Assembly (NCBI GenBank): GCA_012514175.1
Contig: JAAZAU010000011.1
Coordinates: 1-63,671, forward strand
DNA from: Parcubacteria group bacterium
GTDB lineage: Bacteria > Patescibacteriota > Minisyncoccia > Phycocordibacterales > WO2-35-19
Direction: 5' to 3'
Length of the DNA stretch: 63,671 nt
Shown here: piece after piece, positions 7,538 through 44,804 of the stretch
Position numbering within the stretch: position 1 is the stretch's first letter
How the letters are laid out: each line of letters starts with the position of its first letter
Made by a program: the position numbers and the translations under genes
The notes under the pieces: generated by a model
Databases searched by the model: none
What the model saw: the letters and a program-made list of their open reading frames with translations, nothing else
What the model was told of the DNA's origin: nothing

Positions 7538-7996
7538 ATGAAAATGCCTCAAATAAAAATAAATTTTAAACCACTTTTTTGGGAGGCTTTATCTTTGTTT
7601 ATTGTTGTAATTATTCTGCATTGCATGGCAAGCGCGTATCATCTTTACTGGAAAATTTATGAATTTGATAGTATTTTGCATTTTTTGGGTGGCGCAACTC
7701 TTTCCTTATTCTTTTTGTGGCTTTATTTTTATTCTGGCTTGTTTAAGCCTCGGAACAGAAAACTTAAAGATTTTATTGTTATAGCTCTTTTAGGTTCGGT
7801 TTCCATTGCTTTATTTTGGGAAATTTATGAACTTATTTTTAAACGATATATGGTGCAGATTTCTGATTATCCTTATGATCTCACTATGGATTTGATAATG
7901 GATGTTTTGGGCGCCTCCGTTGGGTTTTTGTATGGCTATATGAGAGAGTTGGAAATTTTAAAAGGTGAAAAAACAAAAAACAATGAGCAATCCTAA
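7538..7996 (+). CDS. hypothetical membrane protein
   Basis: 152 aa with about 4 hydrophobic helices and no recognisable motif. Confidence 0.5.
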   Translation: MKMPQIKINFKPLFWEALSLFIVVIILHCMASAYHLYWKIYEFDSILHFLGGATLSLFFLWLYFYSGLFKPRNRKLKDFIVIALLGSVSIALFWEIYELIFKRYMVQISDYPYDLTMDLIMDVLGASVGFLYGYMRELEILKGEKTKNNEQS

Positions 7997-9395
7997 ATTA
8001 ACATTTTATGGCGGTGTCGGATTTACTACCGGAGCAAATTTTTTGGTTGAATATAAAGATTTAAAACTTTTGGTGGATTGCGGACTTCTTCAAGGTACTA
8101 GAAATGCCGACGAAGTAAATTCTGCTCCGTTTAAATATAATCCATCTGAAATTCAGTTTCTTTTTGTTACTCACGCTCATATGGATCATATCGGTAAAAT
8201 ACCTAAATTAGTCAAAGATGGTTTTAAGGGTCAAATAATTTCAACTTTTGAAACTAAAGAATTGGCGAAACATTTGCTTGTTGATGCTTACAAAATAATG
8301 ATTTCTAGAGAAAGAGGTGGAGTCTCAAGAAATTTTTATGAAGAGAAAAATATAGGTGAATCTCTCAGTTTGTGGGAAAGTGTAGCTTATGGAGAAAAAC
8401 AGCAAATTAATTCTGAAGTTTCTTTTCGTTTTCTTGATGCTGGTCACATTTTGGGGTCAGCGATAATTGAATTAAATTTTAATGGCAAAAAAGTAGTTTT
8501 TACTGGTGATCTGGGTAATAGTCCTTCTCCGTTACTTAGAGATACTGAAATTCCTGAAGATGTTGACTATTTAATTATAGAAAGCGTTTATGGAGATAGA
8601 AACCATAAAGATAAAGAAGAGCGCCGAGAAATGTTTAAAAAAATAATTAAAGAAACTCTTGAGCGAAAAGGAGAAGTTATTATTCCAGCTTTTTCTGTTG
8701 ATAGGACGCAAATTATTCTTTACGAATTAAATAATATGGTAGAAGATGGCGAATTGCCGAGTGTGCCAGTATTTTTAGATTCACCGCTGGCTGAAAAAGT
8801 GACAGCAATCTATAGTAAATCCGATAGATTATTTAACCAAAATATTCAAAAAGAAATCGCTTCAGGTGATGATATTTTTAGTTTTCCAAAATTAGATATT
8901 GTGGGTTCCGCTAGAGAAAGCCAAGCTATTGAAAACATACCCAATCCCAAAATAATTATTGCAGGTAGCGGGATGTCAGAAGGGGGGCGTGTTTTAGAGC
9001 ACGAAGCCAGAGCTTTGCCTCATCCAGAGAACACAATTTTACTTATGGGCTATCAGCCTGTTGGGACTTTGGGTAGAGAGCTTCAAGATGGCGCAAAAAC
9101 CGTTACTCTTCCAGCTTCTTACGTAAAAGGAAAAGGGGGCAAACAAAAGGTTCCAGTCAGAGCAAGAATAGAAAGTGTTCATGGTTACAGCGCACACAAA
9201 GACAGTGAGCACTTATTGGAATTTGTAGAGAAATCTGCTGGCGTCAACGAAGAAAACCAAAAAACCAAACTTAAAAAAGTTTTCGTAGTAATGGGTGAGC
9301 CAAAATCATCGCTTTTTCTTGTGCAACGCATCAGAGACTATCTAGATATTCCTGCTATTTATCCAGAAGAAGGGAAGGAATACGAATTGATCTAA
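7965..9395 (+). CDS. MBL-fold / beta-CASP family (RNA) metallo-hydrolase
   Basis: HAHMDHIG (HxHxDH), DAGHILGSA and later ESVHGYSAHKD, typical of the beta-CASP RNase J/CPSF-like fold. The start may be the ATG at 7983. Confidence 0.8.
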   Translation: MKKQKTMSNPKLTFYGGVGFTTGANFLVEYKDLKLLVDCGLLQGTRNADEVNSAPFKYNPSEIQFLFVTHAHMDHIGKIPKLVKDGFKGQIISTFETKELAKHLLVDAYKIMISRERGGVSRNFYEEKNIGESLSLWESVAYGEKQQINSEVSFRFLDAGHILGSAIIELNFNGKKVVFTGDLGNSPSPLLRDTEIPEDVDYLIIESVYGDRNHKDKEERREMFKKIIKETLERKGEVIIPAFSVDRTQIILYELNNMVEDGELPSVPVFLDSPLAEKVTAIYSKSDRLFNQNIQKEIASGDDIFSFPKLDIVGSARESQAIENIPNPKIIIAGSGMSEGGRVLEHEARALPHPENTILLMGYQPVGTLGRELQDGAKTVTLPASYVKGKGGKQKVPVRARIESVHGYSAHKDSEHLLEFVEKSAGVNEENQKTKLKKVFVVMGEPKSSLFLVQRIRDYLDIPAIYPEEGKEYELI

Positions 9396-25847: not shown

Positions 25848-25922
25848 GGTGACTATGGTGTAGTGGTAACACGACAGCTTGTGGAGCTGTTTTCGCCGGT
25901 TCGAGTCCGGCTAGTCACCCCA
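25848..25922 (+). tRNA. tRNA-His(GUG) with encoded G-1 and CCA
   Basis: G-1 + GTGACTA/TAGTCAC acceptor with C73 opposite G-1, anticodon arm ACAGC-TTGTGGA-GCTGT, T-arm GCCGGTTCGAGTCCGGC. Confidence 0.9.
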
Positions 25923-27497
25923 TTCGAGAATGAGTGTTGCAAAAGCAACATTTCGTGCCTCAACAGAGGCGTATTCTCTCAGTCCTAACCTCTCAAATTC
26001 AGCCCTAAATTCAGGGTATGCTTCTTTGATTGGTTGAAACCATTCATTGCCGGTAATGAAGACTTTGCCGTCTTTGATGTAGAAGTTTTGACCTAGTGCC
26101 GAGAATATCTCACGCTTTTTCTGAAGATTACCTGTAACGAACTCTTTTCGGGCATAGCAGGCGAAGTTAAATACCTGTTCAGTAAGGTCCAGCCACTTTG
26201 AGGCACGTCCCTCGGTTTCGCGGAGTTTCGCTTGTAATCGGGCAATTTTATCTTTCAAAATGTCACGTTCTTTCACAAAAGTCTCATCGTCGATAAGATC
26301 GCGGTAACGCATCTTGGTGAGGTTATCGAGCTCAGTCTGCGATTCTACGACAGTCTTGTGTTGCATTTCATAGATCTTGGTACGGTCCTCGATTTCTTTA
26401 TCATTATTGCGATTCAAAGCCTCAATAGCCCAAGTTTGGAATTCAGGAAGGATTGTATATTCCTCAAGCAAGAGTTCGATCTGCTGTTCAAGATCAGAAA
26501 GGGTGATGGGGTTTCGCTTAGGACATGGCACGCCTTTCTTGTGGCCGGTGCAGTGATAGTAGGTGTACACTTTTTTCTGACCCGTTTTCTTTATATCCTT
26601 AACCTTTTCAGTGCCGGTATACATTGCACCGTATAGTCCACATCGAATAAGCCCGGTGAATGCAAACTCATGGGTTTTGGCTCGTGGCTTTTCAGTCCTA
26701 TCAAAGATAGCTTGGACCCGATCGAACTCCTCAAGAGTAATCATCGGCTTGTGATTGCCCCTGTATACTTTCTTGCCCCAGTGAAAGTTTCCGGTATAGA
26801 AAATATTGTTGAACATTTTATAGATCACACTCGGTGCCATCTCTACTCCACCGCTATGTTTGCTCTTTAGGGACCGATAGCCCCACTCTTTATTCGCAAT
26901 CTCCGCAATTTTCTTTGGTGTGTAATTGCCAGTAAGCATAAGGTCCCACATCTTACGGACCAAATGGAAACGTTCAGGATCAGGCAGGATTATATGCTCA
27001 AGTCGCTCGTTGATATAACCAGCAGGCGCCTTCGAAGGGAACCAACCACGATCAGCTTTGCCATGCATGCCTCGCTTGGTATTTTTGCGTAGCTCAATAA
27101 TGAACTGATTAGCCATGCCACTTTCAACACTGAAAAGAAGAACGTTATCATCAGGCAGATATTCTCGTTCCATTGTTTGAATGGATTCGATAATGCCTTT
27201 CTGAAGCATCCAGCTAAGCTTTCCGCTATCGATAGGGTTACGAGCGAGGCGATTGATCTGCCAGCAGAGTATTCCTTTTGCTTCGCCTTTCTCAATACGC
27301 CGAAGCATATCGTTAAAGATTGGTCGGCCTGGTTGCTTGGCCGACTTTGCTTCGGTTAGAATCTCTTTGACTGAAATACCAAGAGAGTTGGCTCGCTCTT
27401 TGAGCCTATTCACCTGGTCCTCGATTGATTGCTCTTGTCGATCCTCTGATTCAGAAGACTTACGAGCATACATGAAATATTGAACGTTTGTCGCCAT
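25911..27497 (-). CDS. large serine recombinase (integrase)
   Basis: N-terminal resolvase domain YARKSSESEDRQEQSIEDQ (Ser nucleophile), recombinase domain, Cys-rich zinc-ribbon region (CGLYG...YYHCTGHKKGVPC) and coiled coil. 528 aa. Confidence 0.88.
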   Translation of the reverse strand: MATNVQYFMYARKSSESEDRQEQSIEDQVNRLKERANSLGISVKEILTEAKSAKQPGRPIFNDMLRRIEKGEAKGILCWQINRLARNPIDSGKLSWMLQKGIIESIQTMEREYLPDDNVLLFSVESGMANQFIIELRKNTKRGMHGKADRGWFPSKAPAGYINERLEHIILPDPERFHLVRKMWDLMLTGNYTPKKIAEIANKEWGYRSLKSKHSGGVEMAPSVIYKMFNNIFYTGNFHWGKKVYRGNHKPMITLEEFDRVQAIFDRTEKPRAKTHEFAFTGLIRCGLYGAMYTGTEKVKDIKKTGQKKVYTYYHCTGHKKGVPCPKRNPITLSDLEQQIELLLEEYTILPEFQTWAIEALNRNNDKEIEDRTKIYEMQHKTVVESQTELDNLTKMRYRDLIDDETFVKERDILKDKIARLQAKLRETEGRASKWLDLTEQVFNFACYARKEFVTGNLQKKREIFSALGQNFYIKDGKVFITGNEWFQPIKEAYPEFRAEFERLGLREYASVEARNVAFATLILEWGD

Positions 27498-31062: not shown

Positions 31063-31890
31063 GTGGGTATTATGTCACCAGAAGTATTAGATAAAAAACA
31101 AGCAATTCGTTCACTAGTGCACACCGCGGTTGAATCATATGCCGCAGGTTTCCAAGCTCGACATGAGGGCGAAATAGATGATCCAGAGGGAACTCTGAAT
31201 ATGAAAATACATAATGTTTTTATTGCTGTCCTCGGTCCCGAAATACAATATTTTACTGCTCTCGTTCGATCACTAGATAGCTCTCTTGGAAATATGCTCG
31301 AAAAATTGGCGATAAATATTGCTAAATTTTCTTATGAGGTCAAACAGAATGTTGAGGGTCCTTTAAGTGTTCAGCAAACTCAATCAATTGCAGAGCTTCT
31401 AGAAAAATATAAAAGACGAGAGCTAACCCCGAGCAGTGATGACTATCAGCTTTTAAGGACAAAACCCACAGATCAATCATTAGTTACAAAGAGGCACGAT
31501 AGTGACTATTATTTGATTGATAAAGAGACAGGAGAGAACTATCTAATCGAACTTAAGATAGGTGGTGATCTTGATAATAAAAAAGCTCGATCTGAAAAAG
31601 AAGCACTTTTGGAACAGCTTGCCATTCTTTCAAATACATTACCTGTTAATTCTAAAGTAAAAATATTCTTTGCAACAGTATATAACCGTTATGGTGAAGA
31701 CAAACCATGGAAACAAGAGCGAGTAAAGCAATTTTTTGCTGAAGATGAGCTGATGATAGGTAAAGATTTTTGGAATTTTGTATGTAAGTCTGACGATGGA
31801 TATAAAATTGTTCTTGATGCATATAAGGAAAAAGCTGGACTAATCAAGAATTCTTTGGATTCAATAAAGAAGACCTACCTAGGGGTATAG
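31063..31890 (+). CDS. candidate type II restriction endonuclease
   Basis: Lies immediately upstream of two DNA methyltransferases. Has a PD-(D/E)xK-like D...ELK segment (DSDYYLIDKETGENYLIELKIGGD). Family assignment not verifiable by eye. Confidence 0.5.
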   Translation: MGIMSPEVLDKKQAIRSLVHTAVESYAAGFQARHEGEIDDPEGTLNMKIHNVFIAVLGPEIQYFTALVRSLDSSLGNMLEKLAINIAKFSYEVKQNVEGPLSVQQTQSIAELLEKYKRRELTPSSDDYQLLRTKPTDQSLVTKRHDSDYYLIDKETGENYLIELKIGGDLDNKKARSEKEALLEQLAILSNTLPVNSKVKIFFATVYNRYGEDKPWKQERVKQFFAEDELMIGKDFWNFVCKSDDGYKIVLDAYKEKAGLIKNSLDSIKKTYLGV

Positions 31891-31906
31891 CTAGGGTTTA
31901 AAAATT

Positions 31907-33094
31907 ATGCAACCACTTATAAAATGGCCTGGCGGCAAATCAAAAGAATTTGAATACATAAAAGATCTTATTCCTCACCATACACGTTATGTTGAGCCGT
32001 TTTTTGGTGGTGGTGCCGTTTTCTTTCAATTGAAACCAAAGAAAGCAATAATAAATGACATTAATCTTGAGTTAGTGAACTTTTATAAGTTTATTAAAGG
32101 TGAAGAAGATAAAAAATCTTTTGAGAAGGCCCTGTATGATTATGTCGACAATTGGGAAAAAATCCCTAAATATATTGCCATATTTGAAGATAAGCTAACT
32201 AAGCTGTATTTGGATTTTAAACACGACAAGATTTCCAAGGAAGATCTTAAAGTGACCGTAAATAAATACCTACAGTCTGAAGAGAAAAGATTCAATGGTC
32301 TTTTTCATGAAGACTTTTGCCTCGACGAGAAAAACTTGTTAAGACAGATAATTTCTAATCTTGTCTCTAAGCTCGGCAGAATAAAGAAAATCGAAAAAGA
32401 ACGTGGAAAGATTGGTGATGGTGATTTACATAAAAACATAGAAACCGCCTTCCGTAGTGGTTTTTATATGCATTTCAGAGATGTAATGAATTATAATGGC
32501 TCACGTTTTAAAACCACTCTAGCTAAAAAAGTTGCGAATTATTATTTCATAAGAGAATTTTGCTACGCGTCAATGTTTAGGTTCAATGCGGCTGGGCATT
32601 TTAATATACCTTATGGTGGCATTGGATATAACAATAAAGATTTTAGAAGTAAGGTGGATTATATTCTCAGTAAAGATGTTGAAGACTTATTCAAAAATAC
32701 AGAGATAGAAAATACTGATTTTGAAAAGATCTTTAAAAAAAGTAAGCTGAGTGAAAATGACTTTATATTTCTAGATCCACCATATGATACCGACTTTAGT
32801 GATTATGAAAAACACTCTTTTGGTAAAAAAGATCAAGAGAGGCTTGCTGAGTGTTTGTACACTACAAAAGCTAGATTTATCTTAATAATTAAAGACACCC
32901 CATTTATTTCAAGTTTATATAAGAACAAGAAAGGAATAAACGTTGTCTCTTTTGATAAGACTTATCTTTATAACGTAAAAGGTCGAAACGATAGAGAGGT
33001 TGAACATCTGATCATCTATAACTTCAATGAAAAAATATCTGAACAAAATCATACATGGAAATTGCCTAGAAGTGTTGAAAGGGTTTCCAGATAA
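31907..33094 (+). CDS. Dam-family (D12 class) DNA adenine-N6 methyltransferase with large insertion
   Basis: KWPGGKS, EPFFGGGAVFF, NDIN and DPPY motifs. 395 aa. Confidence 0.85.
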   Translation: MQPLIKWPGGKSKEFEYIKDLIPHHTRYVEPFFGGGAVFFQLKPKKAIINDINLELVNFYKFIKGEEDKKSFEKALYDYVDNWEKIPKYIAIFEDKLTKLYLDFKHDKISKEDLKVTVNKYLQSEEKRFNGLFHEDFCLDEKNLLRQIISNLVSKLGRIKKIEKERGKIGDGDLHKNIETAFRSGFYMHFRDVMNYNGSRFKTTLAKKVANYYFIREFCYASMFRFNAAGHFNIPYGGIGYNNKDFRSKVDYILSKDVEDLFKNTEIENTDFEKIFKKSKLSENDFIFLDPPYDTDFSDYEKHSFGKKDQERLAECLYTTKARFILIIKDTPFISSLYKNKKGINVVSFDKTYLYNVKGRNDREVEHLIIYNFNEKISEQNHTWKLPRSVERVSR

Positions 33095-33809
33095 TAGTGT
33101 TGACCTCATTTTTGCTGATCCGCCATATTATCTACAACTACCAAAAGGTAAGAGATTAAAGCGACCGGATGGTTCAGAGATTATTCCTGTTGATGATGCA
33201 TGGGATCAGTTCGATGGTTATGAAGACTATGATCGTTTTACAACAGATTGGCTTAAAGAATGCCAAAGAATTTTAAAACCGACAGGAACTATATGGGTTA
33301 TAGGGATGTACCATAATATTTTTAGAGTTGGAAAAATTATGCAGGATTTGGGTATTTGGTTTTTGAATGATGTTATATGGGTTAAGATCGGTGCACTTCC
33401 TAATTTAAATTGTCGTCGTCTGACTAACAACCATGAGACTTTGATATGGGGTGTGAAAGATAAAAAATCAAAAGGTTATACCTTTAATTATCAATTACTT
33501 AAAAAGATGAATGGTGATAAGCAGATGAAAGATACAGACTGGAGTTTCGGCATATGTCGTGGAAGTGAAAGGTTAAGAGGTAAAGATGGAATTAAGTCTC
33601 ATCCCACTCAAAAACCTCTTAAACTAATTCAGCAGGTACTTCTGACCTCGAGCAAAAAGGGGGACATTGTACTCGACCCATTTATGGGTAGCGGCACTAC
33701 CGCTGTAGTCGCAAAAGCTCTTGGTAGAAAATGGGTTGGAATAGAAAGAGAAAAGAAGTACGTTGACTTAGCTATCAAAAGAGTGGAAAATTTCACGATT
33801 GCTAAATAA
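33027..33809 (+). CDS. beta-class N6A/N4C DNA methyltransferase
   Basis: IIHGNCLEVLKGFPDNSVDLIFADPPYY ... HPTQKPLKL ... DPFMGSGTTAVVA. Its start overlaps the previous MTase by 68 nt. Confidence 0.88.
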   Translation: MKKYLNKIIHGNCLEVLKGFPDNSVDLIFADPPYYLQLPKGKRLKRPDGSEIIPVDDAWDQFDGYEDYDRFTTDWLKECQRILKPTGTIWVIGMYHNIFRVGKIMQDLGIWFLNDVIWVKIGALPNLNCRRLTNNHETLIWGVKDKKSKGYTFNYQLLKKMNGDKQMKDTDWSFGICRGSERLRGKDGIKSHPTQKPLKLIQQVLLTSSKKGDIVLDPFMGSGTTAVVAKALGRKWVGIEREKKYVDLAIKRVENFTIAK

Positions 33810-35130: not shown

Positions 35131-36255
35131 ATGAAAAAAAATATAAAAAATGAAAAACAAGCCGCTCGAGTATTTCACCCGGGGGACATTTTGCTTGATG
35201 AGCTAAATGACAGACAGCTTACTCAAGCTGAGTTTTCAGATATCATTGGCCGTCCAGCTAGGACTGTAAATGAGATCATTAAGGGAAAGAGGGGTATTAC
35301 TCCTGAAACAGCAGGGGTTATTGCAGCTGCACTTGGAACGTCTCCTGATATGTGGCTCGCTATGCAGGCTGAGTATGATTTATATGTTTTAAGTAAAAAA
35401 TCAAAGGATAAACCTCAAGAAGTTGAACAAAGATCAGAGTTGTATTCTTTGTTTCCAATTGCTGACCTCGTTAGACGGTCCTATATAAAAAGAAAGACTA
35501 AAGTTGAGGAACTCAAAAAAGATATTCTCAGCCTTTTGAATTTGTCATCTATTGATGACTTTAATACCAGACTCGCCGGTGCTCGTTTTAGAGTATCTAA
35601 TGGGGACATTGTTTTAGGTTATTTAAATACTTGGGTACTTTTAGCAAAGAAAAAAGCTTCTGAGCAGAAACTTGATAATAAGTATGATAAGGAAAAATTG
35701 AAGGAGTTTGCGAAAACTATTAAGGATTATTCTTGTAAAGAGAAAGGTATAGAGACAGTAATTAATGAGCTTAAAAAGCTTGGTGTTAGAGTTATTCTCT
35801 TACCACATTTTTCTAAGACACGTGTTGATGGTGCAGCTTGCTGGATTGACGACCAATCGCCGGTTATTGTCATGTCTTTGAGATATCAAAGAGTAGATAA
35901 TTTCTTCTTCACATTACTGCACGAAATAGGACACATTGTCTTACATGCACCTACTGATACCAATGCCTTTTTTGTGGATGATTTAAATAATCTAGAAAAA
36001 GAAAACAAACAAGAAAAAGAGGCTAACGATTTCGCGATTCAAAATCTCGGACTTAATGGAGTTGTTTCTAGTCTTAAGTTTATAGATATTACTCCACAGA
36101 TATTACTTAAAAAGAGTGAAGAAGTTGGAGTGCATCCTAGTTTGCTGATTGGTCATCTTCAGCATGAAAATCTGCTTGCTTATACTGCATATCAGAAGTT
36201 TTTGAATAAAGAAAAAATCAATCAGATGATTCCTGCTACCTTGATTGAGAAATAG
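35131..36255 (+). CDS. HigA-like XRE HTH antitoxin fused to ImmA/IrrE (M78) metallopeptidase domain
   Basis: N-terminus FHPGDILLDEL...LTQAEFSDIIGRPARTVNEIIKGKRGITPE (HigA/VapI HTH). C-terminal HEIGHIVLH (HExxH). Confidence 0.75.
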   Translation: MKKNIKNEKQAARVFHPGDILLDELNDRQLTQAEFSDIIGRPARTVNEIIKGKRGITPETAGVIAAALGTSPDMWLAMQAEYDLYVLSKKSKDKPQEVEQRSELYSLFPIADLVRRSYIKRKTKVEELKKDILSLLNLSSIDDFNTRLAGARFRVSNGDIVLGYLNTWVLLAKKKASEQKLDNKYDKEKLKEFAKTIKDYSCKEKGIETVINELKKLGVRVILLPHFSKTRVDGAACWIDDQSPVIVMSLRYQRVDNFFFTLLHEIGHIVLHAPTDTNAFFVDDLNNLEKENKQEKEANDFAIQNLGLNGVVSSLKFIDITPQILLKKSEEVGVHPSLLIGHLQHENLLAYTAYQKFLNKEKINQMIPATLIEK

Positions 36256-36355: not shown

Positions 36356-36946
36356 ATGTTAGTCAAAGAATGCAACATGCCAGATATTAGCGATTTGAAA
36401 CACTCAGTTGTGGGGCATTTTATCCTGACATCTTTAGCTGGTTTTGATAAACAACACTCACAAAAGACGATCAAGACACTTTCTGTTATCTCGCGTCTGA
36501 TGGATAAGGCAAAATATGAGTATCAAGTTGCCAGAGAAACTGCGATCGAAGAAGAGAAAGAAAATAAACTTACATATGAGGAATTAATGAAAAGAGATAG
36601 CGGACAGTATATGTATACATGTCCGATTATAAATCATCTTGAAAACTGTATTAATGCATTATCGAGAATTTTCAAACTCGTTAAACTTTTACCGAAAGAA
36701 TATAATTTCACTCACCAAAAAAAGATTGTTGATATACGAAATGCAATTGAACATATGGATGAACGTATCAGTAGCTCTAAACAAGGATCGCTTTCGTTAA
36801 ATATTTCTGAGGATGCACTAGCGGTTGAAATTACAGGGGAAATCATTAAGCTTGAGGATGTTGCGGGCCAGATTAGGGTTCTATACAAAGAGATAAGAGA
36901 TTTTATATATAAATCGGATGACAAAGTTACTTCAGGCAATAAATAA
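36356..36946 (+). CDS. HEPN-like hypothetical protein
   Basis: Helical 196-aa protein with IRNAIEH (R-x4-H). Confidence 0.45.
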   Translation: MLVKECNMPDISDLKHSVVGHFILTSLAGFDKQHSQKTIKTLSVISRLMDKAKYEYQVARETAIEEEKENKLTYEELMKRDSGQYMYTCPIINHLENCINALSRIFKLVKLLPKEYNFTHQKKIVDIRNAIEHMDERISSSKQGSLSLNISEDALAVEITGEIIKLEDVAGQIRVLYKEIRDFIYKSDDKVTSGNK

Positions 36947-37741: not shown

Positions 37742-38373
37742 TTGACCGCACATTATTACGGAAAAAACAGGTAGCCTGATAACGCCTGATCACACCTGTT
37801 AACTCCTGACCGTTAATACGGTCGAAATACGGTGATCAACCTGATAGATCAGGAAAAGATCAGGTGAACATGTCCGGTCCAAAATTACGGGAGTTGCGGT
37901 CACTGTGAAGTAATCCGAAATAGTGAATGAGACTGTGGGGTAAGCGGTTCTCGGTTCCCGTAATAACGGGAAATTAACGGGAAGGCACTTTTGCATGAAA
38001 TAGTGAGTGAGAGTGTAGGGTAAAGACTGATAAAACAGTTAAATAACAGTCTTTGACTTATCGATCACGAATTACAAAACAGAGTAGGTGCCCGCCGTTA
38101 AAAAACGGTGAAAAAACGGGTGCGAGCCACCATTAGAAAAAGGTGAAAAAATGGGCAGACCAACTTTCAGCAGAAATTACGGGGGTTCGATAGAATACAG
38201 AGTAGAAGTGTAGGGTAAAGCTGCGATTGTAATTTAAGTGCAACAAAACTCTCTGTTGTTAATACAACGCAAAAGCAACGTGTGTCCACCTGCAAATGCA
38301 GGTAAAATGCAGGAGTAATTATTATTTAGATATAGTGAGCGCGAGGGTGGGGTAAATGTTATAATGGTCACAA
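37742..38373 (+). repeat. repeat-dense non-coding region (iteron-like)
   Basis: Four copies of a 24-nt motif ATAGTGAG.G.GAGTGTRGGGTAA (37920, 38000, 38195, 38332). At least 9 copies of an A/T-rich + ACGG(G) decamer. CCTGAT/ATCAGG repeats, including the palindrome CCTGATAGATCAGG (37840..37853). Confidence 0.8.
38319..38355 (+). repeat. left copy of ~37-nt direct repeat
   Basis: TTATTATTTAGATATAGTGAGCGCGAGGGTGGGGTAA, about 33/37 identical to 44768..44804. Confidence 0.85.
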
Positions 38374-38772
38374 ATGACTATTTTTGAAGATGTAAAAAAG
38401 CTTAATTTGCCTATTGGTCAGTATGCAGTTGTCGGCAGTGGAGTGATGTCTGCTTATGGTATACGACCGCACCACGATGTTGATCTAATTGTGACCAAGA
38501 ATCTTTTTGTAATCTTAAAGAATAGTGGCTGGCAAAGTGTTCCGAATAGAAATGGTGTTCTTAAAAGTGGTAACTATGAAGTTGATGCTGATTATAAATA
38601 CAGGGAATATCAGCCGGACCACGATGAATTGATTAGAAATGCGGAAATTATTGAGGGAGTACCATTTATAAGACTCAGTGAGCTGATTAAATTTAAGACG
38701 GCTCTCGGTAGGGATAAGGATAAAAAAGATATTGAGCTCATAGAGCAATATTTGATAAAACAGAAAATTTAG
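38374..38772 (+). CDS. minimal nucleotidyltransferase-fold (Pol-beta superfamily) protein
   Basis: VGSGVMSAYGIRPHHDVDLIV (GS...DxD NTase signature). 132 aa. An extended -10 (TGTTATAAT) lies just upstream. Confidence 0.6.
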   Translation: MTIFEDVKKLNLPIGQYAVVGSGVMSAYGIRPHHDVDLIVTKNLFVILKNSGWQSVPNRNGVLKSGNYEVDADYKYREYQPDHDELIRNAEIIEGVPFIRLSELIKFKTALGRDKDKKDIELIEQYLIKQKI

Positions 38773-38784
38773 ACTAATATCGTT

Positions 38785-39399
38785 ATGATTATGAATACAG
38801 GTAAATTACTTTTAACTTCAACGGGTCTATCCTCTGAAAATATCGCAAAAAGATTTCAGAGTTTTTTTGCTGACCCAGGAAGCCAGGCTGTTGCAATAGT
38901 AACGACGGCTGCAGAAGGTAAGGATCAAAATAAATATTCTCAGCTTGCAAAAAAGCAGTTTGAAGAAATGGGATTCACTAAGATTGATTTTGTTGACCTT
39001 GAGGCAGAGCTAGACAGAGACTTTTCTTCATACGGTGTTATTTATGTATGTGGCGGAAACACCTTCAAGCTTCTTAAATTCGCTCGTGAGGCAAATTTCA
39101 AAACCTCAATCGAGAATCTCCTAAGTCGGGGTGGTGTATATGTGGGCGTTAGTGCTGGAAGTATTATTGTCGGTCCATCAATCAATATAGCTAATGAAGT
39201 CGAACCTGACCCGAATGATATCGGCCTAGAAGATCTCACTGGCTTTAATATCACCGATCTTATTATTCTTCCGCACTATTCTCCAGAGGTTGAGGAAGAA
39301 ACAAAAGTTTTTGAGAAAAAATATAATGTTATTGTGGAGAGATTAAATAATTCTCAGGCTGCTCTCTTAGAAAACGGAGAAAAGATTATTGTTGAATAA
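38785..39399 (+). CDS. peptidase S51 (dipeptidase E-like) family protein
   Basis: VIYVCGGNTFKLLKF ... VYVGVSAGSII (Ser nucleophile context) ... LPHY. 204 aa. Confidence 0.7.
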   Translation: MIMNTGKLLLTSTGLSSENIAKRFQSFFADPGSQAVAIVTTAAEGKDQNKYSQLAKKQFEEMGFTKIDFVDLEAELDRDFSSYGVIYVCGGNTFKLLKFAREANFKTSIENLLSRGGVYVGVSAGSIIVGPSINIANEVEPDPNDIGLEDLTGFNITDLIILPHYSPEVEEETKVFEKKYNVIVERLNNSQAALLENGEKIIVE

Positions 39400-39404
39400 A
39401 AAAA

Positions 39405-39428
39405 GGAGACACACTTGCGTATGTCTCC
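39405..39428. terminator. hairpin between convergent genes
   Basis: GGAGACA-10 nt-TGTCTCC between the S51 peptidase (+) and the 251-aa ORF (-). Confidence 0.45.
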
Positions 39429-39431
39429 CTG

Positions 39432-40187
39432 TTAGAGCAACTTCTCAATCTTACCCATCAGATTCTTCACCCTTTTCCTTTTGGAAAGTTCAAGAGCGAT
39501 TTCAAAGATAGGTCGGTCCAAAGACCGAAGGAGAATTGCTTGTCGTTCAAGCGAACGGAACCCCCGGCAGTACTGACGGCTACGTGCAAACGCTAGCCTG
39601 ATCATTGCGGCTGTAACATCCGAGAGGCATAACTCTCGCTCGATAATTGCATCTTCATGCAATCTTTCAAGCGTTGAGAGTTTTTGCCTTATCTCCTCAG
39701 TACACAGTTCAACAATTTTCTTCGAGAGCGAGATGGGATAGGGAACAAGTAGTTCCCTTAAGCGGTCACTGATATCGGTTACGTCATGTAAAGTTTCAGC
39801 AGTAGCTAAATCTCCGCACAACGCTTCCGGCAACCAGTACCCGGTAGCCCATGGGCGATGTTGACCACCCAAATTCTTGCCCTCAATCCACTCTTCGACC
39901 TGCCTGACGAGCAGAGCTGCATCGCAAACTGCGATACCTCCTGTACTCGTCGGCAGATCAAAGCGTACGCTATCGTCGCACACGAAGAAGTTTCCATCAG
40001 GCCATCGTTTCTTCAGCAAGGATTCGATGATAGGCGAATATGTTTCAATTCTGCCTTCATCGCAACCTGCTAAGAGATCAATCTTGCCTTTTGAAGAGTT
40101 CCTCTTCAGTCCGACGTGTAAGAGCACTTTCATGCCCTGCATCTCACGCAGAACGTGAGTTAGATCGGAGATCACACTACTTTTCAT
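39432..40187 (-). CDS. hypothetical protein (last gene of the AKR-rSAM-AlaRS-like operon)
   Basis: 251 aa in the GC-rich region. Its start overlaps the upstream stop as ATGA. No motif recognised, other than a weak NTase-like G..x8..D segment. Confidence 0.6.
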   Translation of the reverse strand: MKSSVISDLTHVLREMQGMKVLLHVGLKRNSSKGKIDLLAGCDEGRIETYSPIIESLLKKRWPDGNFFVCDDSVRFDLPTSTGGIAVCDAALLVRQVEEWIEGKNLGGQHRPWATGYWLPEALCGDLATAETLHDVTDISDRLRELLVPYPISLSKKIVELCTEEIRQKLSTLERLHEDAIIERELCLSDVTAAMIRLAFARSRQYCRGFRSLERQAILLRSLDRPIFEIALELSKRKRVKNLMGKIEKLL

Positions 40188-41302
40188 AGTGTCTCCTTTC
40201 CGCGTCTTGATTCCTCAAGCCCGATTAAGGCTTTCGGAAATCCGAATGTGGATGCCAGATACTCGATGTCTGATTCAGTAAGAGGACCATTCCTGCGGGA
40301 AACGAGTTTTTGATACTCTTTTCTTCCACGTTCAAGCCCTTTCTCGAACTTTGACACCTCTTCAGCAAAAACGGCTTGCACCGCTTCGGCCGAAGACCAT
40401 TGATTTCCCGATATCACAACAAACTCATGGAACGGAATCGACGTTTGCTGACAGAGGATGAAAGCCTCTCGGATGAGTTTCCGAAGGACGTAATCCGCCG
40501 CCTTGTTTCCAGGCCGAAGCCCTTGTGATACCAAGAGAACCGCTGCTTTGCCTAAATCGGCTAAGCGACACATGGTGGTTTGATCCTGAACTTTTGATCG
40601 TTCAGTGAGAGTACTGATCACACCTCTCCAGTTCGAGTTTTCATAATCGCTTCGGCTGCATTCGATTGCAGTGACGATACGATCAATACTTGCTCCTGAG
40701 TCGGCAGCGATCATCTCTAACGAAGATTCAAAGAGAACTTCTCCCTGAAACTCAGTAAAGACCAAGTTCCAAAGTTCCATCGACTTTCCTGTGCCTGGAT
40801 TTTGCCAGACGATCTCCGTACGAACGCCACATCGGTTCCGAGTCGGGGTATAGGTGACATTTCCGTCATTACTAACGGTCCTGACACCTAACCTTTCCCA
40901 GATTCTTTGCGACGTTGCATCTTTCGGATGCACTGTAGCTGACAGCGTGTTCGAACTAATGCCTAAGCACGCCGTCAGATATCGCCAGGCACTCTCGATC
41001 ATTACATCCTTCACTTCAGCTTCCTTGCCCTCATAGAGGGAAAAGTGGCCGAGCATGTCGAATGCTAGATGATGCCTTCCTGAACGACCGATTTTCTCCC
41101 ATCCGTCAGTTCTCAAGCAGGTTTGTACTGAAACAACGCGGCTGCTCTCGTGGTTTTTTCCATGAGAGATCACGTCTTCAAATACAACTCCACCTGAGAT
41201 GTTGAACAGGAGTTTCGGATTTGAACTTACGATCGGAACGCTGTCCTGCCACTTGAAACCGAAGGTCCCGAAGTGGCGTCTGATTTCATCATACGACTTC
41301 AT
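40184..41302 (-). CDS. alanyl-tRNA synthetase catalytic-domain paralog (no editing/C-Ala domains)
   Basis: CLRTDGWEKIGRSGRHHLAFDMLGHFS, ELWNLVFTEF, DSGASIDRI, ADYVLRKLIREA and STFGFP align with AlaRS core blocks. 372 aa. Confidence 0.7.
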   Translation of the reverse strand: MKSYDEIRRHFGTFGFKWQDSVPIVSSNPKLLFNISGGVVFEDVISHGKNHESSRVVSVQTCLRTDGWEKIGRSGRHHLAFDMLGHFSLYEGKEAEVKDVMIESAWRYLTACLGISSNTLSATVHPKDATSQRIWERLGVRTVSNDGNVTYTPTRNRCGVRTEIVWQNPGTGKSMELWNLVFTEFQGEVLFESSLEMIAADSGASIDRIVTAIECSRSDYENSNWRGVISTLTERSKVQDQTTMCRLADLGKAAVLLVSQGLRPGNKAADYVLRKLIREAFILCQQTSIPFHEFVVISGNQWSSAEAVQAVFAEEVSKFEKGLERGRKEYQKLVSRRNGPLTESDIEYLASTFGFPKALIGLEESRRGKETL

Positions 41303-42525
41303 GCAGAACCTCCCATTGCCAAGTGTTTGAATACAGTCTGCCTGACTGCGTAGGTGAACTTGCTCATCTCAGGATGAGTAACAAGTCCGCGGTTAATATC
41401 CCAACTTACAACGTGAGCTGGAATCCCGAGATTATCCAATATTGCCTGAGCGCGTTCGATGTTCATGGAATATGCTGATCCATGAGCACAGATTTGCCGT
41501 TGAGCAAGAGGACAACGAGACTCCTCGCACTCGTGTCTGGCAAACGCCTGAACCGAAGTGATGCTTGGAATCTTGAGCATCCGAGTAAGCGCGCATGAGG
41601 ACTTCAGGAATACAGGAACGCCAGGGAAGTGTTCTGCACTCAAGGAAAAGATAAAGTCTATCAAATCCTGAGGCAGCATCTTCACATTGTCGTTCCGAGG
41701 AATGTTCGGCATGGGGAGTTTGTGAATCTCCACCAAACCATTCTCGATACCTTCAGTCCAACGCAATCCTCCGGGGATGATCATATCAATGACATTGCCG
41801 TAGTGCTTTTTTACCCAGAGCATCATCATTTCAATGCGGTCCCTGTTTCCGCTCCATTCAGGAACGATCGGGCGCATATACCATGCGATGGTGGCACCAG
41901 CTTCCTTTGCTTCTTCAGCGTTAAGAAAACGGTTGTTGTGAGCAGGTTCAATCGTATCAGGATTGTCTGCCCAGCACAGAGACAACATCAGACCTCGCGT
42001 CGCATTTGTGATGCGGGCGATGTCGAGCTTTCTTCCTTTCGGAACTCCGCCCTTGGTAACGATCCAGAAGGGATTTTGAAGACCGCGGCGCACGAATGCA
42101 TCCATGATCTCAAATGTGCTTTCTGTAACCGGTCCAGGTGCAAACGGTTCAGTGCTTGCTGTTCCGATGCTGATGATTGTCTCGCCAGCAACGAAAAACG
42201 GATGTTTGATCAATTCATCGACGATTTGATCGACGGTGAACTGATTGCGCCGTCTCGGTCTTTTTGGCATTGTGCCTTGATCTGCAAGATCTTGATGGGT
42301 GTCTTGAACGTGGCAGTATCTGCACTGCCAAGAACATCCAACCCACAGATCAATACTCAGCGAGCTGTTAGACACGCTGACGCACGAGAGCGGATGATTG
42401 CTATCCGGTACAAGAACTCCGTACGTATATTCACGAACAGAAAACTCGCGGCCGGTAGTCATCCCATTGATCGTTACGCGCGGTTCCGAATTGGCAGCCG
42501 CTACGTATTCTTGTTTTGAATTCAT
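41299..42525 (-). CDS. radical SAM enzyme
   Basis: VGCSWQCRYCHV (CxxxCxxC). Trimmed to MNSKQEY at 42525, which has a GGAG RBS and an ATGA overlap with the upstream gene. 408 aa. Confidence 0.75.
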   Translation of the reverse strand: MNSKQEYVAAANSEPRVTINGMTTGREFSVREYTYGVLVPDSNHPLSCVSVSNSSLSIDLWVGCSWQCRYCHVQDTHQDLADQGTMPKRPRRRNQFTVDQIVDELIKHPFFVAGETIISIGTASTEPFAPGPVTESTFEIMDAFVRRGLQNPFWIVTKGGVPKGRKLDIARITNATRGLMLSLCWADNPDTIEPAHNNRFLNAEEAKEAGATIAWYMRPIVPEWSGNRDRIEMMMLWVKKHYGNVIDMIIPGGLRWTEGIENGLVEIHKLPMPNIPRNDNVKMLPQDLIDFIFSLSAEHFPGVPVFLKSSCALTRMLKIPSITSVQAFARHECEESRCPLAQRQICAHGSAYSMNIERAQAILDNLGIPAHVVSWDINRGLVTHPEMSKFTYAVRQTVFKHLAMGGSA

Positions 42526-43259
42526 GTGACAACTCCTTTCAAGTGGTTGATGTTGCGTGATATTTGTTCTTCTGTGGTCATACCGATGACAACAGATGTT
42601 CCGAGCTGCATTGCATCTTTGATGAGCAGCTCGACTGGATGAAGGGTAAGTATTTTTCCCTGACAGAAAAGACTTCTCAAGAGAATCTCCTTTTTCATGG
42701 CGATCAAAGAGGGAAGCTGATTCAGTATCCATCTTTGATTCGGATTAAAAGGGGCTTCTACAACATCAATGTAAGGCAAAGCCTCATCACTGATGACTGA
42801 TGAAAAATCATCCGGTAGAGAAATTCCTACTCTTCGAGTCGTATTCCCACTCTTCATCTTTTGCAAGTGTTGAATAATGGGGATTGCATCTGACGTCCAC
42901 GAGGGAAGCCAGTTGTGCAACAAGACGGTGTCGACCTGTGTTCTCTTGAGCCGGTCCAATGAACCTTCAACACTTCGATCAAGATGATCTGGTGTATAAA
43001 ATTCACTGATCGGAGTACGAGTTTTAAGGTCGGGTTTTTTGATTGCTGGGATTTTGGTCACGATGACCGCATCTCCCGGCAACCATGTGCCAATCATCTC
43101 CTCAACTTTTCCTCCACCATAGACAGCCGCCGTATCAAAACGACGAATGCCCGAACTGATGGCGAAAAGCAGAAGAGATTCAATGTAGTCGGGGGGCAGC
43201 TTTTTGAACTGTCCTCCAAGCTGCCATGTGCCGAAGTAGAGTCGTTCAAACCATTTCAT
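42522..43259 (-). CDS. aldo/keto reductase family protein
   Basis: LYFGTWQLGG..., IRRFDTAAVYGGGKVEEMIG, and ...LLHNW blocks. 245 aa. Confidence 0.7.
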   Translation of the reverse strand: MKWFERLYFGTWQLGGQFKKLPPDYIESLLLFAISSGIRRFDTAAVYGGGKVEEMIGTWLPGDAVIVTKIPAIKKPDLKTRTPISEFYTPDHLDRSVEGSLDRLKRTQVDTVLLHNWLPSWTSDAIPIIQHLQKMKSGNTTRRVGISLPDDFSSVISDEALPYIDVVEAPFNPNQRWILNQLPSLIAMKKEILLRSLFCQGKILTLHPVELLIKDAMQLGTSVVIGMTTEEQISRNINHLKGVVT

Positions 43260-43425
43260 GTTTTTCTCCTAATTTTGAGGTTGTTAAAGAGCCTTCAGTT
43301 AAAATTGTTTCTGGCATAAAACTACAACAAAATCAGCTCTAGGTCAACCGATGTCTTGCCAATCATTAAAATAAATGTTAATCTATTTCCGGATTTGAAA
43401 CCTTAACAAAAGAAAGGAGATAAAC

Positions 43426-44717
43426 GTGAGTTTACCTTACAAGACAACAGAGGAAGTGCGTCAGACGTTTCTGGGGCATTTTCTTAAGCGCGATCACCAG
43501 TTGATCGAGCAATCGGGGATTATTCCAAGGAATGATCCAACACTTATGTTCATCAACTCGGGGATGGCTCCGCTCAAACCCTATTTTACGGGCCAAGCGA
43601 CACCGCCATATCCGCGTTTGACAAACGTGCAGGACTGCATCCGTTTCGTCGATGTCGAAAGCGTCGGCATTCCTATCATGGGACGAACTTTCGAATGATG
43701 GGGTCATGGTCTTTCGGTGATTATTTCAAAGAGCGAGCCATTGAGCTTGCCTTCGAACTGATTACTGAAGGTTTCGGGATTCCGGCCGAACGATTGTCCG
43801 CGACGGTATTCATGGCTGATGAAAGTCTGCCGGGAGTACCGAGTGACGAAGAGTCAGCTCGCATCTGGGAGAAATTCCTGCCGCGAGAACGCATCATCGG
43901 TCGACCGCCAGTAGACAACTTCTGGGGTCCTGCTGGCACGAGTGGACCTTGTGGTCCATGCACCGAAGTCTTTTTTGATCGAGGCGAAGAATTCGCTGAG
44001 AAAAAAACTGATGACGTGCTTGTTCCTGGGCGGCACATCGAGATCTGGAACGCTGGAGTGTTCATGCAATACTTCAAGGATGAGCAAGGGAATTTTTCTC
44101 CGCTCCCCATGAAGTGCGTGGACACTGGCGCTGGTCTCGAGCGCTTCGCTATGATTCTTCAGGGTCGGGCTTCGATTCACGAGATCGATCAGTATGAACC
44201 ATCCTACCAACTCATCAATCAGCGCATTGGTGATACGGCGTGGACTCGGATCATTCTTGATCATATCAAGACATCGATTCTGATGATCAGGGAAGGAATC
44301 GTCCCGAGCAATACTCGGGAAGGTTACCTCCTGCGTCGTGCGCTTCGGCGTGCGATGATCGGAGTCTTCCTGCGAGGTATCAATCTGACCATTCTCCAGG
44401 AGTGGGCAGACTCCCTCAGTGAAGTGATTGATAATAAGGATCTGACCGTTCGTCAGAAATCTGTTATCGCTCACTGGCTTAGCGAGGAACGCGACAGCTT
44501 CGAGAAACTGATGCATCGCAGCAGGAAGTATCTGGACAAGATCGTGACGGCAAAGGAGTTGGATGCGCAACACGCGTTCACCCTGAAGACCGGCATGGGC
44601 ATTCCCGAAGATCTCCTGGAAGAATTCTGTGCTCGTCATGGGATTCCGTTTCCGAAGGTCGAGTTCCTCCGGCTTATCGAAGAGCACAGGAACATCTCCC
44701 GCCGTCCGAAGAAGTAG
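43426..44717 (+). pseudogene. second AlaRS catalytic-domain paralog, interrupted by a 1-nt frameshift
   Basis: ORFs 43426..43698 and 43695..44717 join as ...GRTFE|MMGSWSFGDYFK (AlaRS FEMLGNFSFGDYFK motif). Downstream blocks are GPCGPCTEVFFD, EIWNAGVFMQY, DTGAGLERF and GYLLRRALRRA. Confidence 0.8.
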
Positions 44718-44767
44718 TTCTTTCAGTAGCAAACAAGCCCACCTCGTTTACACCGGGGTGGTCTTTT

Positions 44768-44804
44768 TTATTATTTAGACATAGTGAGCGCGGGTGTAGG
44801 GTAA
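44768..44804 (+). repeat. right copy of ~37-nt direct repeat
   Basis: TTATTATTTAGACATAGTGAGCGCGGGTGTAGGGTAA. It marks the end of the GC-rich cassette. Confidence 0.85.

Follow-up and report, generated by a model that had tools for sequence, protein, structure and literature searches.

What could a gene cassette that joins a radical S-adenosylmethionine (SAM) enzyme to truncated aminoacyl-tRNA synthetases (aaRSs) be making? We addressed this question in a 63,671-nt stretch of DNA from a Parcubacteria group bacterium (contig JAAZAU010000011.1, assembly GCA_012514175.1), hereafter the window. It carries six genes of interest: an aldo/keto reductase (AKR), a radical SAM enzyme (rSAM), two paralogs of alanyl-tRNA synthetase (AlaRS) of 372 and 430 aa (Ala372 and Ala430), a 251-aa protein (p251), and a peptidase of family S51 (S51). 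Our favoured reading, to which we assign a probability of about 0.5, is that this cassette is a mobile biosynthetic pathway whose product is a small molecule with a modified nucleoside or nucleotide as its scaffold and an amino acid attached to it. Several observations support it. The six-gene set is conserved under purifying selection in Patescibacteria—the candidate phyla radiation (CPR)—while its flanks always differ. Gene fusions suggest that rSAM, AKR, and p251 act together. Matched pairs of aaRSs are swapped between loci, with all adenylate-forming residues kept in Ala372 and exporters of the major facilitator superfamily (MFS) encoded beside non-CPR versions. Finally, the biosynthetic pathways of ascamycin and albomycin follow the same logic.

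A six-gene cassette that recurs across Patescibacteria

The unit consists of six genes, one of them in two fragments, as listed here. Coordinates are positions in the window, AlaRS residues follow the E. coli numbering, and L and P numbers label mapped loci and proteins.

42522 to 43259, minus strand: AKR, 245 aa, heading the coupled operon; PF00248
41299 to 42525, minus strand: rSAM, 408 aa; fold like that of spore photoproduct lyase (SPL), plus an extra conserved cysteine set
40184 to 41302, minus strand: Ala372, truncated AlaRS paralog, 372 aa; aminoacylation and tRNA-recognition domains only; PF01411
39432 to 40187, minus strand: p251, 251 aa; predicted ANT(4')/LinB-like nucleotidyltransferase (NTase) fold with a DUF4037-like C-terminal helical domain
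38785 to 39399, plus strand: Peptidase_S51, 204 aa, convergent with p251 and a member of the cassette; PF03575
43426 to 43698, plus strand: N-terminal fragment of Ala430, 90 aa, ended by a frameshift; PF01411 profile positions 1-78, E 4e-25
43695 to 44717, plus strand: C-terminal fragment of Ala430, 340 aa; PF01411 profile positions 88-430, E 2e-68

An initial annotation, made from the sequence alone, had described the four minus-strand genes as a single translationally coupled unit joined by three ATGA overlaps of start and stop codons. The overlaps, read directly at 42525-42522, 41302-41299, and 40187-40184, bear this out to the nucleotide, but the four genes are not the full unit, which also takes in S51 and Ala430. 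The start of rSAM is the ATG at 42525, which is common to its orthologues; the 477-aa version given by the open reading frame (ORF) lister begins within the AKR gene. GC content also sets the cassette apart, at 0.45-0.52 per gene compared with 0.375 for the whole window and ~0.33-0.36 for the flanks, with a sharp step at both edges. The cassette is thus richer in GC than its host, as had been noted, at a measured 45-52% rather than the ~55% first estimated.

How widespread is this set of genes? A total of 74 loci were mapped by tblastn, and gene counts were taken from the 44 nonredundant loci with enough flanking sequence. More than 40 independent loci carry the gene set: AKR is present in 36/44, an aaRS-like gene in 35/44, p251 in 32/44, and S51 is present or adjacent in 32/44. 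Homologues of p251, Ala372, and rSAM fall into 109-216 clusters at 90% identity, and those with a taxon name are nearly all from Patescibacteria (Paceibacterota and Uhr-, Buchanan-, Nomura-, Yonath-, and Zambryskiibacteria). Of 185,579 species representatives, 10 carry p251. All cassette genes are under purifying selection (dN/dS 0.02-0.23). DNA homology to other genomes is limited to the cassette itself, from 38.25-38.9 kb to 44.72-44.77 kb of the window, with none in the flanks; the left limit reaches 38249-38371 in comparisons with L011, L036, and L043, and the right limit lies at 44723-44774. The GC content of the cassette is ~50% in hosts of 33% GC and of 61% GC alike. The cassette is clearly foreign in its base composition and moves horizontally among Patescibacteria.

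The order of the genes varies. In loci of the window type AKR heads the rSAM operon, whereas in type B it heads the operon of Ala430 or of an aspartate- or lysine-specific aaRS. On both sides of the type B cassette lie inverted repeats of 67-427 nt, with identities of up to 100%, that duplicate the 5' untranslated region, ribosome-binding site, and start codon of rSAM and AKR (L018, 8344-8770 and 14433-14859; L055, 7870-8007 and 12278-12415; L014, 7564-7670 and 13505-13611; and the ends of L001). These repeats could mediate inversion or gene conversion. Because assemblies break at them, many cassette contigs are 5.87-5.96 kb long. A circular 5.9-kb plasmid was considered for these contigs and ruled out: the ends of L001 are inverted copies rather than a direct overlap, and the genomic loci are flanked by inverted repeats.

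Could the cassette be an assembly chimera of a GC-rich fragment, or its AlaRS-like genes a split housekeeping AlaRS? The sharp GC step at both ends and the retention of AlaRS catalytic residues in both paralogs would be expected in such a case, but the idea is already contradicted and its probability is negligible. At least 24 contigs, the longest of 442 kb, share the junction between cassette and host (54 index blocks), which excludes a chimera, and the cassette also sits in long contigs of many other genomes. So few species representatives carry p251 that a housekeeping role is hard to entertain. Neither AlaRS paralog is the housekeeping alaS, since both are optional across loci—some lack one or both—and one is frameshifted here, nor does either reach the alaS cut-off. 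The initial annotation had itself raised these objections, along with the chance that the neighbourhood would be conserved nowhere else; the gene set is conserved in other genomes.

An interchangeable aaRS module

Which genes define the cassette? Comparison of the loci indicates that the core is AKR, rSAM, p251, and S51, and that the aaRS part is swappable rather than defining. The AlaRS paralog, first taken for a defining part, gives way in other loci to AspRS-type enzymes, class I LysRS, or a carrier-protein ligase. Loci of the alanine type have Ala372 with Ala430, or, in L031, L032, and L076, a full-length 895-aa AlaRS (854 bits in L031; TIGR00344 cut-off 457) that heads an operon also holding an Ala372-type gene. 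In the aspartate type (L018), the AlaRS pair is exchanged for a 303-aa bacterial-type AspRS core that has no anticodon-binding domain and a complete 435-aa AspRS (487 bits; cut-off 353); L050, L053, and L054 have the AspRS core without the large AspRS, and L083 has an AspRS with a HIT hydrolase. Loci of the lysine type (L019, L039, L047, L052, and L055-59) carry a class I LysRS (349 bits; cut-off 147), a homologue of which is found in L084 and L085 as well. All six genes lie in a single operon in L025, whose organism also carries carotenoid genes.

A further type occurs in Firmicutes (Thermoactinomyces sp. DSM 45892 and Priestia megaterium). Here the p251-AKR-rSAM-S51 core is kept and accompanied by a carrier protein, a class IIa aaRS core resembling amino acid:[carrier protein] ligases, a condensation-like protein with an HxxxDG motif, an ATP-grasp ligase, and an MFS transporter; the cluster of Priestia megaterium additionally has MazG. 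MFS exporters adjoin the non-CPR versions. Amino acid:[carrier protein] ligases are truncated homologues of SerRS (NF005479), and the Firmicutes relatives put the carrier protein and class IIa core in the place of Ala372; the match of this core to NF005479 is weak (72 bits against a cut-off of 357), and the CPR cassette has no carrier protein. Taken across types, the small paralog or carrier-protein ligase is the usual constant, and a large aaRS of the same specificity its optional companion. Lys-type loci are an exception, with a full-size LysRS only and no small paralog.

In L066 (3863-6017), an S51-like gene overlaps the start of an archaeal-type ProRS gene, 3.4 kb upstream of a disrupted rSAM copy. 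This may be a further, proline-specific variant of the pairing of S51 with an aaRS, or a coincidence.

Two truncated AlaRS paralogs

Ala372 matches PF01411 (E 1e-42, profile positions 10-402) and aligns to residues 25-407 of E. coli AlaRS; Ala430 aligns to residues 2-436. Against the AlaRS model TIGR00344 (cut-off 457), Ala372 scores 150.8 bits and the two fragments of Ala430 score 88.2 and 243.9 bits. Profile searches found neither the editing domain (tRNA_SAD, PF07973) nor the C-Ala domain (DHHA1, PF02272) in either paralog, confirming their reported absence from Ala372.

Do these proteins retain the residues needed for catalysis? In all 95 of 95 sequences of the Ala372 family, R69, H86, H87, F90, E209, N212, D235, G237, and R242 are invariant, and those that bind ATP and alanine (R69, F90, E209, N212, D235, G237, and R242) are invariant also in 23 sequences of the Ala430 family. 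The motif-2 loop G71-H74 is deleted in both families. W170 is lost from Ala372 and retained, like the remaining residues, in Ala430, in which the further changes are R85Y, H87G, and E91R. The deleted loop includes K73, which we take to contact the 3' end of the tRNA; its loss from both paralogs suggests that Ala372 and Ala430 act on an altered acceptor.

Compared with six intact 430-aa orthologues, Ala430 in the window has a 1-nt deletion at 43668/43669, which yields the ORFs of 90 and 340 aa. The ATG of the C-terminal fragment overlaps the stop codon of the N-terminal fragment in another ATGA, and this coupling is an accident of the frameshift. An assembly error was ruled out as its source: no fewer than 24 contigs, among them one of 442 kb, share the identical 340-aa ORF and its neighbours (54 index blocks), so the frameshift is real in this population. 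With dN/dS against orthologues of 0.02-0.08 across both fragments, and 0.02-0.04 in the C-terminal one, Ala430 here would be either a gene inactivated recently or a split protein that still functions.

The rSAM, AKR, p251, and S51 proteins

The families first proposed for AKR, rSAM, and the AlaRS paralog all hold (PF00248, CxxxCxxC motif plus fold, and PF01411, respectively). AKR matches PF00248 with 85.6 bits (E 4e-24; cut-off 24), in an alignment that covers only profile positions 2-142 of 291. The catalytic tetrad D42, Y47, K69, and H115 is legible in the sequence, and the C-terminal half is divergent or shortened. The rSAM protein matches PF04055 at E 7e-4 (20.2 bits, under the gathering score of 29.5). 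Among 20 diverse homologues, the CxxxCxxC cysteines C64, C68, and C71 are invariant, as are five more (C184, C311, C333, C338, and C346), and the protein carries an extra C-terminal domain with conserved cysteines. The family is rare, with 506 matches at E<=1e-3 and 60 at E<=1e-30 among 1.84 billion representatives, and constrained (dN/dS 0.03-0.06).

To which branch of the radical SAM superfamily does this protein belong? A sequence search against the PDB gave nothing significant, and the informative match came from a fold search only. The AlphaFold model (pLDDT 91) has as its top PDB match spore photoproduct lyase (4fhc; E 2.7e-4, TM 0.46/0.54, identity 17%), in keeping with the SplB/COG1533-like layout noted at the outset, and also matches the radical SAM enzymes LipA, SkfB, and NifB. 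Motif and predicted fold thus place the protein in the radical SAM superfamily, with SPL as just its nearest fold. It shares with SPL/COG1533 enzymes this structural match and weak matches to models of the Rv2578c and PA0069 families (NF038135, 25.5 bits against a cut-off of 430; NF033668, 14.3 bits against 360). These scores are far under the family cut-offs, however, and the cassette context holds no hint of DNA repair.

For p251, in which no nameable motif had been recognized, a profile search likewise gave no family match, but the predicted model (pLDDT 88) does reveal an identity. Foldseek matches it to PDB entries 6p01, 1kan, 6un8, and 3jyy (E 6e-5 to 5e-4, TM 0.58), which indicates the two-domain fold of kanamycin and lincosamide nucleotidyltransferases: a Pol-beta NTase domain followed by a helical domain. 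In the window and in other CPR genomes the active-site motif reads VGL...KIDLL, in which only D37 is invariant and which departs from the hG[GS]...[DE]x[DE] pattern, whereas homologues in Firmicutes and in fusion proteins retain VGS...DYDLL or GS...DIDLL, with the DxD. S51 matches PF03575 with 102 bits (E 4e-29; cut-off 23.9) and falls below the cut-offs of the equivalogs PepE (54.6 bits against 156) and cyanophycinase (27.8 bits against 126.6).

Fusion proteins link three of these components. AKR is fused to rSAM in P0356, P0358, P0359, and P0366 (589-648 aa), and rSAM to p251 in P0333 and P0350 (fusions of 642-663 aa). They are the main reason for which AKR, rSAM, and p251 are treated here as one putative catalytic unit. 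Two loci (L027, 3275-5203, and L028) have AKR and an rSAM-p251 fusion within a cluster of polysaccharide flippase and glycosyltransferase genes, which hints that some members of the family act on nucleotide-sugars.

Might the cassette synthesize nothing, and only protect its host against a foreign antibiotic that targets an aaRS, by means of the extra aaRS, S51, and p251? The nearest folds of p251 are the antibiotic-inactivating enzymes ANT(4') and LinB, the full-size aaRS copies exceed equivalog cut-offs, and S51, together with the S66 and HIT proteins of variant loci, resembles the immunity functions MccF and HIT hydrolases known for microcin C. Yet the most conserved parts of the cassette are rSAM and AKR, fused to each other and to p251, for which resistance offers no rationale; a housekeeping aaRS could hardly be replaced by small paralogs such as Ala372 and an AspRS core that lacks the anticodon domain; and the Firmicutes relatives are plainly biosynthetic. 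We therefore consider a resistance island very unlikely.

Nucleotide enzymes and defence genes as neighbours

What accompanies rSAM where the aaRS module is missing? In such loci its neighbours are nucleotide enzymes. An operon in L029 (8001-12190) comprises rSAM, a thymidylate kinase that matches the PADLOC model VakA (E 7e-14), NUDIX, S51, and S66 (MccF-family/LD-carboxypeptidase-family) genes. It adjoins an MmeI-type restriction-modification (RM) system, a DEAD helicase, and a T5orf172 gene, and is itself a candidate for a defence or toxin module based on nucleotides. In L030, L066, and L067 rSAM occurs with CYTH and NDK, and in L070 with CYTH and Ham1. MazG, Ham1, NUDIX, and HIT enzymes destroy non-canonical nucleotides or aminoacyl and phosphoramidate nucleotides. 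The nucleotide-enzyme neighbours and the NTase fold of p251 together point to a nucleotide or nucleotide-sugar, which on this guilt by association is most likely the substrate of rSAM.

A different acceptor has also to be weighed, in which the amino acid is placed on a macromolecule or envelope component—a tRNA nucleoside, a translation factor, a nucleotide-sugar, a surface polysaccharide, or a lipid—with rSAM and AKR preparing the acceptor or the amino acid and S51 reversing the mark. There are precedents: EpmA, a LysRS paralog, works with the radical SAM enzyme EpmB on EF-P, GluQRS aminoacylates queuosine, and tRNA-dependent transfer of Lys, Ala, and Asp to lipids and sterols uses dedicated aaRS copies, for the same three amino acids as here. 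The polysaccharide cluster of L027 and L028 and the LD-carboxypeptidase-family S66 gene of L029 fit as well. On the other hand, the cassette, in contrast to core modification pathways, is patchily distributed, mobile, and foreign in composition, and it encodes no member of the known transferase families for aminoacylation of lipids or peptidoglycan; the MazG, Ham1, NUDIX, and HIT neighbours point to free and potentially toxic nucleotides; and the non-CPR variants have MFS exporters. On balance this alternative is quite unlikely.

Distant relatives of rSAM (22-25% identity) lie on plasmids of Agrobacterium vitis (NZ_CP118262.1; L033, 6923-9218) and Nostoc (L035, 6974-8782). Both form small operons with an AAA_28 P-loop kinase, joined in A. 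vitis by a DEDDh exonuclease, and the A. vitis relative is found among anti-phage dGTPase, GIY-YIG nuclease, WYL, and TIR genes. Neither rSAM relative itself matches a PADLOC model. Likewise, PADLOC-DB v2, which includes viperin models, gave no match for any of the six cassette proteins; VakA was matched only by the kinase of L029, a distant variant.

The setting of the cassette in the window is also reminiscent of defence. It is the distal cargo of a ~19-kb island that starts at a tRNA-His gene (25849-25922), directly followed by a gene for a large serine recombinase of 528 aa (25849-27497 together); these two likely mark the left end of an integrated island. Between them and the cassette lie a TdeIII restriction enzyme with two DNA methyltransferases (31063-33809) and an HTH-M78 (ImmA/IrrE-like) gene (35131-36255). 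A large serine recombinase is near the cassette in L018, L039, L046, and L086 as well. A direct repeat of the end of tRNA-His was sought at the cassette border as an attachment site, and only an 11-mer matched, which is chance level. Of the integrated island with RM and HEPN modules that had been described at first, RM stands, in the form of TdeIII, and HEPN is plausible with a sub-threshold match only: a 196-aa protein at 36356-36946 has an RNAIEH (Rx4H) motif, and its best HEPN match is HEPN_LA2681 (E 0.016).

Could the cassette then be an antiviral system of the abortive-infection or chain-terminator kind? In a viperin-like manner, rSAM would make a non-canonical nucleotide within the cell, kinases or nucleotidyltransferases would activate it, and sanitising hydrolases would limit self-harm; the aaRS would couple the response to translation, or would make a puromycin-like aminoacyl-nucleoside that halts translation in infected cells. 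Prokaryotic viperins are radical SAM enzymes with adjacent nucleotide kinases, and the likeness extends to NTP-handling neighbours and a location in defence or mobile islands. This reading gains from the island with its serine recombinase, TdeIII RM system, and HTH-M78 gene, from the VakA-type kinase of L029 beside MmeI-type RM, DEAD helicase, and T5orf172 genes, from the plasmid relatives with their AAA_28 kinases and, in A. vitis, defence-type neighbours, and from a CPR cassette that has no exporter. It must contend, however, with the lack of any PADLOC match for the six proteins, viperin models included, and with the absence of an evident sensor or effector. The cassette rSAM is SPL-like and has AKR, aaRS, and S51 partners, whereas viperins have no aminoacylation module, and we know of no defence system with matched aaRS pairs. 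Moreover, the carrier protein, condensation-domain-like gene, ATP-grasp ligase, and MFS exporters in Firmicutes and other relatives are typical of secreted metabolites. The absence of the cassette from 50,697 phage records and from IMG/VR is neutral in this respect. We regard an antiviral role as unlikely, if worth keeping in view; it and the aminoacyl-nucleoside toxin pathway, the two functional guesses of the initial annotation, remain the two best readings.

A putative pathway to an aminoacylated nucleoside

How might the favoured pathway to an aminoacylated nucleoside work? The data establish which genes are present and conserved, how modules are swapped and fused, which folds and active-site residues the proteins have, and that the cassette is mobile; the substrate, the product, and each catalytic step are our inference. 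The rSAM enzyme would carry out radical chemistry on a nucleotide or nucleotide-sugar; AKR would reduce the resulting carbonyl with NAD(P)H; and p251 would bind, nucleotidylate, or denucleotidylate the same substrate. The small paralog (Ala372, or elsewhere the AspRS core) would activate an amino acid and join it to this scaffold, while the large copy (Ala430, full AlaRS, full AspRS, or class I LysRS) would supply activated amino acid, serve as an inhibitor-insensitive copy of the target, or both. S51 would remove the aminoacyl cap, for immunity or for activation. The product would mimic an aminoacyl adenylate (aa-AMP) or an aminoacyl-nucleoside; Firmicutes and some other relatives would export it, and Patescibacteria would use it against host cells, competitors, or phages. 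A reading as a ribosomally synthesized and modified peptide was set aside: no conserved small ORF stood out in listings of ORFs of at least 60 aa, and the partners are nucleotide enzymes.

Limited full-text literature searching found no description of this gene set, and it did find two precedents, so that the initial statement that no characterised pathway has this logic was too strong: AcmD, AcmF, and AcmE of ascamycin and AbmK, AbmF, and AbmJ of albomycin share it. In the ascamycin cluster of Streptomyces sp. 80H647, the additional AlaRS AcmD aminoacylates tRNA-Ala and shows greater resistance to the product; AcmF, which resembles AlaRS but comprises only its aminoacylation and tRNA-recognition domains, moves alanine to a nucleoside sulfamate, having lost residues for ATP and alanine activation (N219Q, D232E); and the hydrolase AcmE takes the alanine off again (PMC12945691). 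The cassette resembles this cluster in having two AlaRS homologues, one of them truncated (AcmF and Ala372, respectively), plus a hydrolase, and the resemblance is closest in the L031-type variant, which pairs a full-length alaS with a truncated paralog. It differs in that Ala372 keeps the activation residues and both cassette paralogs are usually truncated; in its hydrolase, which has the S51 fold instead of the alpha/beta-hydrolase fold; in the absence of sulfamate and halogenation genes; in its unrelated rSAM, AKR, and p251; and in its hosts, Patescibacteria and Firmicutes. Judging from its residues, Ala372 may follow the AcmF mechanism or ligate the amino acid directly at the expense of ATP.

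In albomycin biosynthesis, the aaRS-like AbmF condenses a nucleoside amine with Ser-AMP from the SerRS AbmK, which also confers immunity, AbmJ, a radical SAM enzyme, remodels the sugar of the nucleoside, and AbmG is homologous to nucleoside kinases (PMC9032320). An aaRS-like condensing enzyme, a second aaRS of the same specificity, a radical SAM enzyme, and a nucleoside kinase homologue are thus common to albomycin and the pathway proposed here. Albomycin is, by contrast, Ser-specific and has a siderophore carrier, PLP enzymes, and a radical SAM enzyme of another family, and it has no AKR, S51, p251, or swapping of amino acid modules. A looser parallel is offered by peptidyl-nucleotides of the microcin C type, for which MccF (an S66 peptidase) and HIT-family hydrolases provide immunity. 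These too are aa-AMP mimics, the predicted product class; S66 (L029) and HIT (L083) genes occur in cassette variants, and in both cases a serine hydrolase may cleave the aminoacyl-nucleotide bond. Unlike microcin C clusters, the cassette has no MccB-type adenylating enzyme and no precursor peptide gene, and its constant hydrolase is S51, not S66.

Several points count against the proposed pathway. The scaffold is read as a nucleotide through guilt by association, and one variant is located in a polysaccharide/glycosyltransferase cluster. With N212 and D235 invariant, Ala372 is not of the AcmF type by the residue losses that mark AcmF. Because some loci have no large aaRS and Lys-type loci no small paralog, the roles of ligase and resistant copy cannot both be universal; Ala430, moreover, departs from the usual motif 2 and carries a frameshift in this organism. 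Lacking the first carboxylate of the DxD, p251 of CPR genomes is perhaps non-catalytic. Finally, an exporter and an obvious regulator are both missing from the CPR cassette.

A more specific version of this proposal is conceivable, and we advance it only tentatively: the loci may encode a programmable family of aminoacyl-nucleoside antimetabolites, either aa-AMP mimics or puromycin-like. A constant chassis of rSAM, AKR, NTase-fold protein, and S51 would be combined with swappable aaRS sets for Ala, Asp, Lys, and possibly other amino acids, each of which would set the warhead and bring immunity through an insensitive aaRS, all within a travelling cassette of ~6 kb. New in comparison with known nucleoside pathways that employ aaRS paralogs are the chassis, the swapping of aaRS modules between amino acids, and Patescibacteria as the main hosts. 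These bacteria are thought to be nearly devoid of secondary metabolism, and a conserved and mobile toxin or antimetabolite pathway would, if true, recast their parasitic or episymbiotic lifestyle; it would be, to our knowledge and with no search aimed at this, the first specialised-metabolite toxin pathway of these ultrasmall episymbionts. The exchange of aaRSs on one chassis would amount to a natural blueprint for retargeting aaRS inhibitors from one synthetase to another, and would provide a new handle for resistance-guided genome mining. The cultured carriers Priestia megaterium and Thermoactinomyces sp. DSM 45892 make the question directly testable.

Other features of the window

The following lie within or next to the cassette.

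39403 to 39430, minus strand: terminator-like hairpin where the convergent p251 and S51 genes meet; its 12-pair stem precedes a T-run
43260 to 43425, no strand assigned: AT-rich intergenic region between the divergent AKR and Ala430 genes; GC 0.32; presumed to hold their promoters
44739 to 44761, plus strand: terminator-like hairpin 3' of Ala430, at the right edge of inter-genome homology
38374 to 38772, plus strand: 132-aa ORF whose GSG...DVDL motif resembles that of nucleotidyltransferases; moves together with the cassette in L011, L036, and L043

No strong consensus promoter was found in the intergenic region at 43260-43425. The 132-aa ORF has no Pfam match, and beyond L011, L036, and L043 it does not accompany the cassette in most loci. 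A search of the cassette for RNA genes found no tRNA, and the sole Rfam matches were two overlapping archaeal C/D-box snoRNA matches within the Ala372 coding sequence, below the gathering score. Elsewhere in the window, at 7965-9395, a 476-aa metallo-beta-lactamase/beta-CASP protein has as its best NCBIfam match "type VII CRISPR-associated Cas14" (390 bits, well short of the cut-off of 800). Other matches are to aCPSF1-like ribonucleases, and the protein is probably a housekeeping nuclease of the RNase J/CPSF type.

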